Source: a phage
NCBI GenBank assembly: GCA_029945195.1
Contig: GCA_029945195.1_4117.1
DNA length: 64,000 bases
Direction: 5' to 3' (one strand)
Both the position numbers and the translations under genes were made by a program. Positions 9,498 through 15,175 of the stretch are shown piece after piece. The notes under the pieces were generated by a model. That model searched no databases. It was not told the origin of the DNA and saw only the letters and a program-made list of their open reading frames with translations. Within the stretch, counting starts at the first letter, position 1. Each line of letters opens with the position of its first letter.

Positions 9498-9567
9498 AAA
9501 GGGATTGACTCCGGTCAGTCCCTTTGCTATTATATATTCATTGAAACAATCTAGCCCACAGGGTGCA
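9498..9567 (+). repeat. composite intergenic repeat, copy B
   Basis: hairpin 9498-9525 with embedded TTGACT 9505-9510 and TATTAT 9528-9533; motif CTAGCCCACAGGGTGCA 9551-9567. Confidence 0.6.
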
Positions 9568-9585
9568 TAAATGTATCTATTGTTT

Positions 9586-9593
9586 GCTGGTGG
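9586..9593 (+). other. Chi site GCTGGTGG
   Basis: exact octamer, intergenic. Confidence 0.6.
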
Positions 9594-10883: not shown

Positions 10884-11279
10884 ATGATTACTAAATTCTT
10901 CGCTACCCGTGAACAAGCTCGCATCGTTGCCCGTGAAGAAGGTGAAACATTTAAAGACATGGGCAAAGATGCACCGAAAGGACAACGCTGGGCGGTACAG
11001 TTCAAAGAGATCTCTGATATTGTGAATTCACCTGAGCCTGTACTTACAGCAGCAGAACTAAAGCAAGCTCAAGAACTGGCTGAAGTACTGAACGCTCAAG
11101 ATGACTTTTTGAAAGGTTCTGATATTGAAGTTACAGTTAACGCAAATGCATGGACTCACGCGGATCACCTGGCAAACCTTAAGCGTCCAAGTGAACTGAT
11201 TCGTAACCAGAAAGAGATCCGTCATGACCGTAAAGGAAACCGTGTAACAGTATACAGTAAACGCCGCCAGGTTATCTAA
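10884..11279 (+). CDS. hypothetical protein (131 aa)
   Basis: track ORF 10875-11279; second ATG 10884 better spaced from AGGA. Confidence 0.55.
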   Translation: MITKFFATREQARIVAREEGETFKDMGKDAPKGQRWAVQFKEISDIVNSPEPVLTAAELKQAQELAEVLNAQDDFLKGSDIEVTVNANAWTHADHLANLKRPSELIRNQKEIRHDRKGNRVTVYSKRRQVI

Positions 11280-11302
11280 TAACTTTGCAGTACTAACAAC
11301 AC

Positions 11303-11327
11303 GGCGGGAACTATTCCCGCCTTTTTT
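11303..11327 (+). terminator. rho-independent terminator
   Basis: GGCGGGAA-CTA-TTCCCGCC then TTTTTT. Confidence 0.7.
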
Positions 11328-11341
11328 ATAGGATAAACAAA

Positions 11342-11596
11342 ATGATTAAGGTTCAACTATCAAACGATAATGTATTACGGGTACACTATAAAGCCCCACA
11401 GAGAATCATCACAAAGGCCGTACAGCTTGCTAATGAGTTTATTAATGGTAGTCTATTGCCTAGGAAGTTAAGCAACGGGAAACTACGTGTAATCGACGTA
11501 GACACTAACAATAGAATAGTGATCGAGAGTACTGGAAAAATTAATCTATATGAACACCAACAATACAATAAAAAAATAAAACTAATATCACGTTGA
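11342..11596 (+). CDS. hypothetical protein (84 aa)
   Basis: ORF track; SD AGGA. Confidence 0.55.
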   Translation: MIKVQLSNDNVLRVHYKAPQRIITKAVQLANEFINGSLLPRKLSNGKLRVIDVDTNNRIVIESTGKINLYEHQQYNKKIKLISR

Positions 11597-11621
11597 CAGT
11601 ACTCAAATGTTTTAGTATTAT
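11593..11621 (+). promoter_or_regulatory. promoter TTGACA-17-TATTAT
   Basis: TTGACAGTACTCAAATGTTTTAGTA block duplicated at 11874-11902. Confidence 0.5.
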
Positions 11622-11654
11622 GTATCTATACCAACACAGAGAGAGAGAAACAAA

Positions 11655-11873
11655 ATGAAATTATCTAAAATCGAAAAGAAAACTATTGATGAAGCAGTGA
11701 AGCACGGTTATACCTTTCGTAATGATTCACACTTCACTAGTTTTCAACAGGGAAACCGTACCATCAAAAAACTCATTGATAAAGGTTTACTCACTAAGGT
11801 TGATAACGGGAACGGTGTAGAATATCAACCGACAGAAGACGCATTATCACTAAAGAAATATTCTATTATCTAA
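11655..11873 (+). CDS. hypothetical protein (72 aa)
   Basis: ORF track. Confidence 0.55.
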   Translation: MKLSKIEKKTIDEAVKHGYTFRNDSHFTSFQQGNRTIKKLIDKGLLTKVDNGNGVEYQPTEDALSLKKYSII

Positions 11874-11902
11874 TTGACAGTACTCAAATGTTTTAGTACT
11901 AT
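11874..11902 (+). promoter_or_regulatory. promoter TTGACA-17-TACTAT (duplicate of 11593-11621)
   Basis: near-identical 30-nt block. Confidence 0.5.
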
Positions 11903-11930
11903 GTACGCATACCAACACGGGGAAAACAAA

Positions 11931-12173
11931 ATGATTACTTTAGAAAAACGTATCAAAGAGACTACAACGCTGGTGGAACTGTTAACCGTTCTTAAATGCC
12001 GGGTAACTCCATTCAGTACACCGGACTTTATCAACATGGTGGACGTTAACGGTCGATATCGTATTGCGGTCGAACAAGGTACGGCAAAAGTATTCAGTAC
12101 TAAAAATACGCGTGAAGTATTCCACGCAGTTCAAGTAAAAAAAGTAGTTGCCATTGATAGTAAAGTACTGTAA
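11931..12173 (+). CDS. hypothetical protein (80 aa)
   Basis: track ORF 11874-12173 trimmed to ATG 11931 (SD GGGGAAAA). Confidence 0.5.
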   Translation: MITLEKRIKETTTLVELLTVLKCRVTPFSTPDFINMVDVNGRYRIAVEQGTAKVFSTKNTREVFHAVQVKKVVAIDSKVL

Positions 12174-12204
12174 TATAGTTTCATTAACTCAAGGAGTCAA
12201 CACA

Positions 12205-12789
12205 ATGCGTAACTATACTAAATTCATCCGTTCACTTCATGCAATGGAAACCAACAAAGAGATCCTTTCAGCTTGTCGGTTAGCTGGACTGGAGATCGTC
12301 GGTGCGGGTTCTTCCCGTATTGTATTCGCTTTAAATGATCGGTTAGTGATTAAGGTCGCGAATTGTGATGCGGGTGTAGAACAAAATGAAACTGAATGTA
12401 AGGTATGGAATTTTTTAGATTATGACCGTCCGCACCTTAAACAGTACTTTGCTAAAGTGCATATGCATTTATGCGATCCTGATAATCTGTTTATTGTTAT
12501 GGATCGTTTGAGTACTGCAAGCAAAGGCAGTGTAAAGCATGTAAACGCGTGCAATGAGTTAAAGTACAATATTAAACGTAATACGGTAGAACGCCATCAC
12601 CATTTCGCTGATGCTCTCAATCACGTTGATGATACATTATCCACACTAACGATAAGAGATATCAGAAAACAGAATATCGGCCAGGATCGCAACGGCTTGA
12701 TTAAAGTACTTGATTACGGTTTAACCCGCAATATCTGGAATCAGTACTATAAAAAACGTGATGTTAACGCGATAACTATAACACGATAA
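12205..12789 (+). CDS. minimal eukaryotic-like protein kinase fold (194 aa)
   Basis: track ORF trimmed to ATG 12205 (SD AAGGAG); Gly loop VGAGSSRIVF, LVIKV lysine, hinge FIVMDRL, catalytic loop IRDIRKQNIG, DYG; C-lobe subdomains VIII-XI absent. Confidence 0.55.
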   Translation: MRNYTKFIRSLHAMETNKEILSACRLAGLEIVGAGSSRIVFALNDRLVIKVANCDAGVEQNETECKVWNFLDYDRPHLKQYFAKVHMHLCDPDNLFIVMDRLSTASKGSVKHVNACNELKYNIKRNTVERHHHFADALNHVDDTLSTLTIRDIRKQNIGQDRNGLIKVLDYGLTRNIWNQYYKKRDVNAITITR

Positions 12790-12800
12790 AAAAGATTAAA

Positions 12801-12875
12801 AAAGGGATTGACTCCAGTCAGTCCCTTTGCTATTATATATTCATTGAGAGATAACTCACTGACCCATAGGGTGCG
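12801..12875 (+). repeat. composite intergenic repeat, copy C
   Basis: hairpin 12801-12828 with embedded TTGACT 12808-12813 and TATTAT 12831-12836; motif CTGACCCATAGGGTGCG 12859-12875. Confidence 0.6.
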
Positions 12876-12930
12876 GAAGTGTATCTATTATATAAGTATT
12901 CAGTACTGAAAACTATTTTATAAAAAGTAC

Positions 12931-12958
12931 TTGCAAACTATCTCAATGAGCGTATAAT
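12931..12958 (+). promoter_or_regulatory. sigma70-type promoter (TTGCAA-16-TATAAT)
   Basis: -35 12931-12936, -10 12953-12958. Confidence 0.6.
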
Positions 12959-13013
12959 GTTTTATATCGAGAGGGGGAAATGGTTCTCCCTGGTACTAAA
13001 AGGAATCAAGACG

Positions 13014-13235
13014 ATGACTACTATGACATGCGTTCACGCTTCAAATCTTCTGAATGATGCAGCATTTAAAGCAGGTGAAGAATATCAATGCTATCGGGAT
13101 GAAAATAAAAAAGTTTTCGTCGTTGATGCTAACGGTTTCCATATTGAATTACAATCCGGCTTCACTGGTTTAAATGGTAAATCAGTATGGGGCGTTAATG
13201 ATGATAATGGTCTTTATCACTTTATCCGTAATTAA
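13014..13235 (+). CDS. hypothetical protein (73 aa)
   Basis: track ORF 12957-13235 trimmed to ATG 13014 (SD AAAGGA). Confidence 0.55.
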   Translation: MTTMTCVHASNLLNDAAFKAGEEYQCYRDENKKVFVVDANGFHIELQSGFTGLNGKSVWGVNDDNGLYHFIRN

Positions 13236-13318
13236 GTATTGACAAAGTATATCAGTACTGTATAATAGTTTACATCAAGGGGAGAATAGTTCTCCCCACA
13301 ATAAAAGGAAACAAAATT

Positions 13319-13591
13319 ATGTCCAGCTACTCCGCTACTATGATTATTAAAGATATGAACGGTAATCCTACTTCTGCTGGTGGATCATTTGGTAACATTA
13401 ATTTAGATGGGCGGTTATCAATTGAATCAGCCATCAATGCCGCGAAAGAAGTTTTTAAGAATGAATGTACTGTAAGCAAACTGGATTATATGGGCTTCGC
13501 TATCGAGAAAACTAATCGTTTTGTGGACTACAAAAAACCACTGATGATCGATACTAACCTGAAAGCTAACGAAGTGGAATACTTATTATGA
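13319..13591 (+). CDS. hypothetical protein (90 aa)
   Basis: ORF track; hairpin 13279-13297; contains in-frame Chi 13376-13383. Confidence 0.6.
   Translation: MSSYSATMIIKDMNGNPTSAGGSFGNINLDGRLSIESAINAAKEVFKNECTVSKLDYMGFAIEKTNRFVDYKKPLMIDTNLKANEVEYLL
13376..13383 (+). other. Chi site GCTGGTGG (inside CDS)
   Basis: exact octamer. Confidence 0.55.
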
Positions 13592-13779
13592 CAGTTGAAG
13601 AAGTTAAAAAAGTACTGGCAGTACTACGCTATCATAATCATTGCAAGGTGAAGAATGATCCTGATTATGTTGATTCATCCCTGGAGGAAGACACCTTAAA
13701 CGCGATAAGCTATATGCAAACATTAGCAAAGCGTATGACCGAAAAGAATAGGCCGGACTATATCGGAAATAAAATTTAA
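13588..13779 (+). CDS. hypothetical protein (63 aa)
   Basis: ORF track; ATGA overlap with upstream gene. Confidence 0.5.
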   Translation: MTVEEVKKVLAVLRYHNHCKVKNDPDYVDSSLEEDTLNAISYMQTLAKRMTEKNRPDYIGNKI

Positions 13780-13867
13780 AAAGTACTTGCATTGTAGTTA
13801 GATTAACGTATAATGTTTTATATCGAGAGGGGGGAAATGGTTTCCCCTCAAGTCCAGGAGATACACC

Positions 13868-14131
13868 ATGAACACTATCGAAATCACTATCAATGCACAC
13901 GTATACGACAACGTAGTACTGCAAACTACTATGACCGCTAATGATACCAGTACTTTGCGGAATATCGTTATTAGTTCAGTATGTGCCGCTATCGGTGATG
14001 TTGCCCTGGAAAATGCAAAACACGTCAACGATGCCTTTACGATGTGCAAACGTGATAACTCAAAACATATCATCTGCGAAGGTTACGGCGGTGTAGAATA
14101 CAATGTTTATATGAAAAAAGTACTTGCATAA
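13868..14131 (+). CDS. hypothetical protein (87 aa)
   Basis: ORF track; SD AGGAG; hairpin about 13825-13847. Confidence 0.6.
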   Translation: MNTIEITINAHVYDNVVLQTTMTANDTSTLRNIVISSVCAAIGDVALENAKHVNDAFTMCKRDNSKHIICEGYGGVEYNVYMKKVLA

Positions 14132-15061: not shown

Positions 15062-15132
15062 AAAAGGGATTGACTCCGGTCAGTCCCTTTGCTATTATAT
15101 ACGCATAGACAAAAATTAGCCCACAGGGTGCA
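15062..15132 (+). repeat. composite intergenic repeat, copy D
   Basis: hairpin with embedded TTGACT 15070-15075 and TATTAT 15093-15098; motif TAGCCCACAGGGTGCA 15117-15132. Confidence 0.6.
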
Positions 15133-15175
15133 GAGAAGTATCTATAAGATAGTTAATAACGGTGAGTAACTATCT

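Follow-up and report, generated by a model that had tools for sequence, protein, structure and literature searches.

The 64,000-nucleotide (nt) stretch of phage DNA analysed here in full (NCBI GenBank assembly GCA_029945195.1, contig GCA_029945195.1_4117.1; hereafter the window) contains, at positions 12205 to 12789, a gene for a protein of 194 amino acids (aa). We suggest, with somewhat more confidence than doubt, that this protein is an active ATP-dependent phosphotransferase of the kinase-like fold, which is cut down to the nucleotide-binding and catalytic core and phosphorylates proteins. The parts of this reading differ in strength: a protein-kinase-like fold is very likely, catalytic activity as a phosphotransferase is probable on the basis of the sequence, and a protein as the substrate is an even bet. 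Since the full catalytic set is kept under strong constraint, an active phosphotransferase is the most likely reading, and since the sequence affinities are solely to protein kinases and a basic residue is retained in the catalytic loop, a protein is the leading guess for the substrate.

The gene and its truncated kinase-like product

When we compared window positions 11000-14000 with sequenced phages, the identity was 97% with phage 121Q and 80-92% with phAPEC6, Turkey5, G17, Sharanji and about 85 other records, which identifies the source by sequence as a 121Q/phAPEC6-like (Asteriusvirus) jumbo coliphage. The kinase-gene orthologues are 90-98% identical in Asteriusvirus phages and 35-40% identical in RaK2-like phages (tblastn), and no second copy or paralogue was found within the 64-kb window. 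The identical 585-nt coding sequence (CDS) is annotated in Turkey5, ph0011 and Sharanji, and the pairwise ratio of non-synonymous to synonymous substitution rates (dN/dS) among four orthologues is 0.04-0.17, indicating that the gene is under purifying selection. Based on the open reading frame (ORF), its ribosome-binding site, the same annotated CDS in relatives and the dN/dS values, the gene is real, as the preliminary description of this DNA had proposed. The features of the gene and its product are as follows.

12191-12196, + strand: Shine-Dalgarno sequence AAGGAG, 8 nt 5' of the ATG at 12205, read from the sequence
12205-12789, + strand: kinase-like CDS, ATG at 12205 and TAA at 12787-12789, 194 aa; full-length match to PHROG 4301 (phrog_4301, "unknown function"; residues 1-190, E 2.6e-42)
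12214-12282, + strand: two predicted N-terminal helices, residues 4-12 and 17-26, ahead of the kinase core; pLDDT (predicted score in the local distance difference test) 91-97 in the AlphaFold2 (AF2) model, conserved family-wide
12301-12324, + strand: modified Gly-rich loop G33-A-G35-S36-S37-R38-I-V40, putatively binding the ATP phosphates; beta1-beta2 hairpin in the AF2 model
12352-12354, + strand: K50, the beta3 lysine (VIKV), invariant in all alignments; putative holder of the ATP alpha and beta phosphates
12373-12396, + strand: start of helix C with the signature G57-x-x-Q60-N61-x-x-E64; helix 55-70 in the model, E64 being the putative partner of K50
12490-12510, + strand: FIVMDRL (residues 96-102), forming beta5 and the hinge, aligned with beta5/hinge of CTR1 and PKC-theta; the model shows a strand at 96-100
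12658-12675, + strand: catalytic loop D152-I-R-K155-Q-N157, with the putative base Asp, a basic residue at D+3 and the putative metal-binding Asn at D+5
12712-12720, + strand: D170-Y-G172, DFG-equivalent putative Mg-binding motif; D170 and G172 never vary, and residue 171 is Y or F in at least 93%
12727-12750, + strand: short C-terminal helix, residues 175-182 (AF2), with a nearly invariant Y182; the sole structured element past DYG

Five kinase motifs had been named in the preliminary description, and all of them are in place and in canonical order: the Gly-rich loop VGAGSSRIVF (residues 32-41), the beta3 lysine in LVIKV (47-51, K50), the hinge FIVMDRL (96-102), the catalytic loop IRDIRKQNIG (150-159, with D152, K155 and N157) and DYG (170-172), after which 22 residues remain to the protein end. 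The catalytic set of the protein-kinase-like (PKL) superfamily, namely the beta3 Lys, the helix-C Glu, the catalytic-loop Asp and the metal-binding Asp, is complete in this protein. In 56 diverse family members, which are 22-50% identical to the query, R38, K50, G57, Q60, E64, D170 and G172 are invariant, and S36, V48, A52, N61, D152 and G159 are at least 90% conserved, D152 being kept in 55 of the 56. The invariant positions in a set of 108 members are G35, S36, R38, K50, A52, G57, Q60, E64, G159, D170 and G172; in both sets, R38 takes the place of the third Gly of GxGxxG. The segment around K50 (VIKVA) aligns with VIKV of the T7 kinase beta3 strand and also falls within the alignment of the family profile to MKK7. 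Ahead of the core, C24 and L29 of the N-terminal segment are invariant or nearly so across the family. Three conserved traits are specific to the family: the P-loop Arg, a QN pair that precedes the helix-C Glu by one turn, and a helix of the pattern [VI][YW]xx[YH]Y after DYG. The catalytic-loop residues D152, K155 and N157 do not change among the Asteriusvirus orthologues, in contrast to positions 151, 154 and 156, which vary. Such a fixed loop triad amid changing neighbours, together with the invariance of K50, E64, D170 and G172, fits an active enzyme better than a pseudokinase.

We then predicted the structure with AF2. A first run on 14 close homologues gave a pLDDT of 51 and was discarded; it was replaced by a run on a 108-sequence alignment, which gave a pLDDT of 86.4 and a predicted template modelling (pTM) score of 0.84, with lower confidence confined to residues 101-140 and values of 96-98 in the 10-residue blocks spanning residues 81-100. 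The elements of the model follow in the order of helices 4-12 and 17-26, strands 30-34, 38-42 and 47-52, helix C at 55-70, strand 96-100, helices 109-117 and 133-145, strands 158-160 and 166-168, and helix 175-182. The predicted topology is that of a kinase as far as the DFG strand pair, and the model contains the elements of the bilobal PKL fold: the N-lobe sheet with helix C, the hinge, helix E, and the catalytic and metal-binding loops. When the model was compared with the PDB using Foldseek, there were 23 matches at E <= 1e-3, and every one has a kinase fold: 22 are protein kinases and one is APH(2'')-IIa. Among them are MEK1, OSR1, MKK4, Lpg2603, PRPK and PknB, with probabilities of 0.99-1.00 and template modelling (TM) scores of 0.36-0.48. 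Structural homologues in BFVD, mostly labelled "uncharacterized", come from RaK2 (34% identity, TM 0.80), PBECO4, Pectobacterium CBB (two copies), Ralstonia RP12, Aeromonas D6 and others. Thus the fold comparison proposed in the preliminary description returned a kinase fold, and an unrelated fold was not seen.

The protein stops where the rest of the C-lobe would be expected. It has about 190 aa, compared with about 260 aa for eukaryotic-type kinases, and both it and the whole family lack the activation segment with its APE motif as well as helices F-I (subdomains VIII-XI). The C-terminal helix 175-182 is placed where the activation segment and helix F would begin. The chain ends 10-30 residues past D[YF]G in the 160 members that we retrieved. 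The idea of a minimal kinase-like protein ending soon after DYG is therefore supported by the profiles, by the conservation within the family and by the predicted fold.

The sequence searches point in the same direction at lower strength. Pkinase and PK_Tyr_Ser-Thr were matched by the window protein (the latter at 18.3 bits, E 0.0015, against a cut-off of 23.1), so that the profile search suggested in the preliminary description found kinases, but both scores lay below the cut-offs and no match to RIO1 or Kdo was obtained at E <= 10. When we searched PDB sequences with phmmer, 79 matches were found at E <= 10, and all 60 that were listed are protein kinases; RDIRKQNIG...LDYG was aligned opposite RDIKPSNILLD...CDFG of MKK4. 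A profile of 14 sequences matched MKK7 from the Gly-rich loop to DFG (query residues 29-182, E about 5e-4), and the family profiles matched MKK4 and MKK7 over the same span of motifs with E-values of 1.4e-4 to 5e-4. Pkinase was also the commonest Pfam match among the 56 members (9 of 56 at E <= 1), and its best match in a relative, P0018, reached E 5.7e-6 and 26.2 bits, still under the gathering cut-off of 31.7. All of 10 sampled diverse members matched PHROG 4301, and none of the 10 reached a Pfam threshold.

A large phage family, PHROG 4301

The PHROG 4301 family has no Pfam model. When we searched 1.8 billion cluster representatives with the family profile, 2,061 proteins were found at E <= 1e-3, of which 244 were at E <= 1e-10. 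The members can be recognized by the signature GxGSSRxV ... VxKxA ... GxxQNxxE ... D-x-x-[KR] ... D[YF]G, followed by the chain end. Among sequenced isolates, tblastn gave 58 records; all 40 that were listed are jumbo phages of 310-386 kb, whose hosts are Escherichia, Salmonella, Klebsiella, Erwinia, Yersinia or Xanthomonas. Wider relatives come from metagenomes, where they lie on large phage contigs such as one of 286 kb from freshwater. Patterns of the close family gave no match in 185,579 species genomes, by a pattern method of limited sensitivity, and patterns of the bulk family gave 10 matches in the same genomes, all on contigs of metagenome-assembled genomes and none in isolate genomes. 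Based on these sequence searches, the family appears to be essentially restricted to phages.

Several variants of the domain were observed. Five metagenomic proteins (P0021, P0023, P0027, P0030 and P0032) are 640-970 aa long and carry 3-4 tandem mini-kinase copies; in each copy the G-loop, Lys, QNxxE and DYG are all present, and the copy stops about 12 residues past DYG. They could be true "poly-kinases", or adjacent paralogues merged by gene calling under recoded stop codons. Since the chain end is family-wide and the tandem copies are complete in their motifs, the unit of about 190 aa is a complete domain. In P0181, P0216 and the BFVD entry A0A6J5LUL6, an N-terminal GNAT acetyltransferase, with or without DUF5661, is fused to the mini-kinase domain, a layout which recalls the bifunctional aminoglycoside-modifying AAC(6')-APH(2''). 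The tblastn records also show that the direct terminal repeat or its vicinity is a frequent location of the gene, which is then present in two copies. It is located in an annotated direct terminal repeat, or at two positions of the record, in G17, WPEC3/5, vB_Ec-M-J, CRJP21, fENko-Kae01 and Muenster, and fENko-Kae01 shows both the terminal-repeat location and two copies of the kinase gene. These terminal-repeat duplicates have a bearing on any knockout design.

The identification of a kinase is itself not new, since GenBank labels and one paper already make it. The Turkey5 orthologue is labelled "serine/threonine-protein kinase", those of Turkey3 and fEgEco12 bear PknA and PRP4 variants of this name, ph0011 and PBECO4 use "protein kinase domain-containing protein", and K64-1, Muenster and fENko-Kae01 use "protein kinase" or "putative protein kinase". 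The paper on Sharanji lists WNN14351.1, which is the orthologue, as "another protein kinase, which function is unknown" (PMC11895373). Our literature searches found no functional, structural or biochemical study of the PHROG 4301 family. The family-level picture and the extreme truncation are modestly new; what is added here is the definition of the family by its signature, its restriction to phages and its exclusion from the named families of minimal kinases.

Relation to known kinases and the probable activity

Eukaryotic-type kinases (PF00069/PF07714; MKK4, MKK7 and PknB) are the best sequence matches. They have the same order of elements from the Gly-loop to the DFG-like motif, and their N-lobe and proximal C-lobe are similar in topology to the phage model. 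The phage protein differs from them in its GxGSSR P-loop, in the extra invariant QN before the helix-C Glu and in the position of the basic loop residue, which is at D+3 rather than at D+2 (Lys, in Ser/Thr kinases) or D+4 (Arg, in Tyr kinases); in addition, it has no distal C-lobe and its Pfam scores remain sub-threshold.

Bacterial effectors offer a likeness in architecture. The type III effector kinases OspG/NleH, SteC and the phage protein are all small kinase domains with a reduced C-lobe, used as a weapon of a parasite against its host, and the SteC N-lobe is a weak profile match (8jbi, E 0.002, residues 18-60). We tried membership in OspG/NleH (PF22303) and rejected it: the window protein has no match at E <= 10, while the model does detect NleH1 (E 1.3e-10), PF22303 is not among the 25/35 families listed for the 56 relatives, and hhalign of the family alignment A2 with NleH1 gave a probability of 1.6%. 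SteC retains helix F, whereas the phage protein ends about 22 residues past DYG. The minimal active kinase domain of SteC comprises residues 210-429, helix F included, and truncation at 375-377 leaves it inactive; OspG activity needs its E2~Ub partner and SteC needs phosphorylation (PMC13395416). By analogy, these requirements suggest how a minimal domain might be regulated.

The kinase of phage T7 (gp0.7 kinase, T7K) is an early phage-encoded kinase of the same superfamily. When membership in the T7K lineage was tried, hhalign gave a probability of 4% with an alignment limited to the G-loop/beta3 segment, and it was rejected. T7K homologues carry DPV at the DFG position (PMC13645617); the phage protein has DYG and 194 aa, and T7K has DPV, a 242-aa kinase domain and a shut-off domain. 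T7K homologues do occur among the weaker BFVD matches far down the list (A0A7L7SMK1 and the "protein kinase" of Pantoea phage SK1, E about 1e-4). Asteriusvirus phages, G17 and Sharanji among them, encode a T7K homologue besides the PHROG 4301 gene, and no T7K-like ORF was found within the 64-kb window.

The preliminary description had likened the protein to the Bud32/RIO/Kdo kind of minimal kinase, and this likeness did not hold up as one of kind. Membership in RIO1 (PF01163), Kdo/Bud32 (PF06293) and APH (PF01636) was rejected, since the window protein has no profile match to them at E <= 10; RIO1, Kdo, WaaY, APH and choline-kinase are not among the Pfam families listed (25/35) for the 56 relatives, and Rio1/Rio2 and PRPK score no better than ordinary protein kinases in the fold comparison. 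The RIO and PRPK chains in the fold matches have 230-269 residues, compared with 194 aa here. RIO proteins carry the loop motif STGKEA, and the basic catalytic-loop residue, which is typical of protein kinases, is not known from the loops of APH, RIO and Bud32. The resemblance to RIO, Bud32 and Kdo is one of general fold only, an analogy and not a membership. Kinases of defence systems were also considered and rejected, because only sub-threshold matches of PD-T4-6 to the catalytic loop were found (E 0.002-0.04), and an NCBIfam search gave nothing meaningful for the protein.

Based on these comparisons, we can outline how an active enzyme might work. After the two N-terminal helices, a five-stranded N-lobe would carry the modified phosphate-binding loop, K50 would pair with E64 of helix C, and the loop residues D152, K155 and N157 together with the Mg site at D170 would complete the core; the hinge would be followed by helices that match D and E by position, and one 8-residue helix would close the chain. 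The enzyme may then phosphorylate Ser or Thr residues of host (or phage) proteins early in infection, for takeover or for disarming defences, by analogy with the T7 kinase, which disarms bacterial defences through promiscuous phosphorylation (PMC13645617). Since there is no substrate-docking lobe, either a low intrinsic specificity or the need for a partner is to be expected.

Several observations weigh against an active protein kinase. Arg stands at the third Gly position of the P-loop, so the protein departs from GxGxxG; the His and Arg of HRD are missing, and the residue before the catalytic Asp varies; the metal-binding Asn also varies in the wider family (S, H or N), with N157 present in the window protein. 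No curated kinase model passed its threshold, Pkinase scoring 17.5 bits (E 0.003) against a gathering cut-off of 31.7, and the sequence E-values to kinases are no lower than 1e-3 to 1e-4. The protein has no helix F, the element considered to scaffold protein kinases, and no conserved partner gene able to supply the missing C-lobe was found across the window and two more distant contigs, L005 and L007. Given the lack of helix F, the inactivity of SteC 210-375 and the need of OspG for a partner, the activity of such a short domain is not guaranteed. Taken furthest, the sub-threshold Pfam scores and the poor AF2 model from the shallow alignment would make the kinase motifs a chance resemblance in a protein that is not kinase-like. 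We consider this effectively refuted, since the canonical order and spacing of the motifs correspond to invariant columns in a family of more than 2,000 clusters, and the deep alignment gave a confident model. A more serious reading of the same points, though in our judgement a rather improbable one, is that of an ATP-binding pseudokinase or partner-dependent module, which would serve as a scaffold, would inhibit a host protein or act as its decoy, or would work only after activation by a partner supplying the functions of the C-lobe. It is in line with the absent helix F and activation segment, the non-canonical P-loop and the variable metal-binding Asn; the units of the tandem multi-copy forms may also cooperate, and both the inactive truncated SteC and the dependence of OspG on E2~Ub are precedents (PMC13395416). 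What stands against it is that K50, E64, D152 and D170 are invariant or nearly so in more than 100 sequences at about 22-25% identity and that the catalytic-loop triad is under strong purifying selection; the lack of a conserved partner gene in distant members counts here as well. Pseudokinases usually lose at least one catalytic residue.

If the protein is an active phosphotransferase, its substrate has still to be weighed. The alternative that it acts on something other than a protein (small molecules, nucleotides or second messengers, or RNA such as tRNA) seems to us unlikely but deserves serious attention, since the missing subdomains VIII-XI are the parts that bind the peptide substrate. 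There is a precedent in ArkI, the archaeal tRNA U47 2'-kinase (AQ578/COG2112), a minimal kinase without subdomains VIII and X that phosphorylates tRNA and was labelled "hypothetical Ser/Thr kinase" before this substrate was found (PMC9095486). ArkI, however, keeps subdomains IX and XI and a positive tRNA-binding patch, whereas IX and XI are lacking in the phage protein, and a sequence relationship between the two was not detected. Aminoglycoside phosphotransferases are another non-protein precedent, and the match of the model to APH and ArkI is no poorer than that to protein kinases; the GNAT fusions in some members and the basic character of the window protein (isoelectric point, pI, of 9.2) would also suit a substrate of this sort. 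On the contrary, the profiles matched are Pkinase and PK_Tyr_Ser-Thr, with APH, choline-kinase and Kdo not listed, the basic catalytic-loop residue is kept (K155, or R in the wider family), and no genes pointing to a metabolite pathway were found among the neighbours. The majority of the proteins in the wider family are acidic, with a median pI of 5.1 in the A3 set, which counts against a common nucleic-acid substrate, and we rejected net charge as a pointer to such a substrate because it is inconsistent across the family.

An active protein-directed kinase, which we still prefer, would have some wider meaning. This is a second phage kinase-like family, unrelated to T7K and much larger, and it is without a curated profile or a solved structure. 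The tail past the DFG-equivalent is shorter than that of SteC, which makes the family a natural test of how small a kinase fold can be for catalysis and substrate choice. Activity of the isolated domain would mean that kinase catalysis does not require helix F as its scaffold. Because T7K disarms defences (PMC13645617), other phage kinases are immediate candidates for the same strategy. It is a tentative proposal, which we regard as less probable than its failure, that PHROG 4301 is the smallest self-sufficient PKL catalytic domain (about 165-190 aa, without activation segment or helix F), a lineage of thousands of clusters, in some polypeptides present as 3-4 copies, restricted to phages and deployed early by jumbo phages, as a second kinase unrelated to T7K, on targets of host defence or takeover. 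If it is true, phosphorylation-based counter-defence is far wider among phages than the T7K lineage suggests.

Transcription and genomic neighbourhood

Three features flank the kinase gene and bear on its transcription.

11874-11902, + strand: sigma-70-like promoter TTGACA-17 nt-TACTAT, 10 of 12 in a consensus scan, the nearest promoter 5' of the kinase gene
11931-12173, + strand: 80-aa ORF, for which Turkey5, ph0011 and Sharanji have an annotated CDS of 243 nt; no Pfam match
12801-12836, + strand: 12-bp GC-rich terminator-like hairpin, 12 nt past the stop codon; the -35 (TTGACT) of the next promoter (-10 TATTAT) lies in its 5' arm

No terminator-like site was found on the + strand between the promoter at 11874 and the kinase gene. 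Since the stop of the 80-aa ORF lies 31 nt before the kinase ATG, co-transcription is probable, and the sequence suggests that the promoter at 11874 probably drives the 80-aa ORF and the kinase gene as one transcript. The hairpin at 12801 probably ends this transcript, and the next promoter starts another. The 80-aa ORF is absent from the more distant contig L005.

When we scanned the 64-kb window for near-consensus sigma-70 promoters, defined as at least 11 of 12 matches, 33 were found on the + strand and 4 on the - strand, and all ORFs of at least 150 aa are on the + strand, in the same direction as these 33 of the 37 promoters. The first 16 kb contain 21 of the + strand promoters, on average one every 760 bp or so, amid short ORFs. 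The same promoter-based argument for early genes has been used for the related phage CBB (PMC5259590). The assignment of the kinase gene to the early region, made in the preliminary description, is thus supported indirectly, by the density of promoters in the 16-kb block around the gene and by the argument from CBB. Judging from these promoter sequences, it is most likely an early gene read by the host RNA polymerase. In our proposed scheme, this polymerase would transcribe it early, together with the 80-aa ORF, as far as the hairpin at 12801.

This hairpin belongs to a module of about 90 nt which occurs three times in the window (9498-9590, 12801-12895 and 15063-15150). Each copy opens with the 12-bp hairpin AAAGGGATTGACTCCRGTCAGTCCCTTT, whose 5' arm is the -35 TTGACT, followed by a 17-nt spacer, the -10 TATTAT and a conserved leader with GCCCAYAGGGTGC and GTATCTAT. 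By its sequence, the module looks like a terminator/promoter cassette between early transcription units.

Contig L005 has several neighbour genes in common with the window, and the distant contig L007 has only the kinase gene. An ORF of L005 (6594-6860) that overlaps the 3' end of the L005 kinase gene gave no match. The shared genes include an 84-aa ORF (window 11342-11596, + strand) with a ParE-like toxin domain, whose score passes the threshold (PF24732, E 3e-10). No other gene of the block is as well conserved: its identity to the L005 gene directly upstream of the kinase homologue is 78.6%, compared with 51% for the kinase. Between the ParE-like gene and the kinase unit lies a 72-aa ORF (window 11655-11873, + strand), which is annotated as "transcriptional regulator" in Turkey5, has only sub-threshold Pfam matches here (linker histone/winged-helix-like, E 0.04) and is absent from L005. 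Finally, we observed ORFs beginning with MFYIERG (window 12957-12980 and 13813-13836; MYYIERR in P0009), which represent read-through of conserved upstream sequence of a promoter/leader-like kind. The annotated CDSs of relatives begin further downstream than these ORFs, and such read-through is a likely cause of over-long gene calls among these phages.

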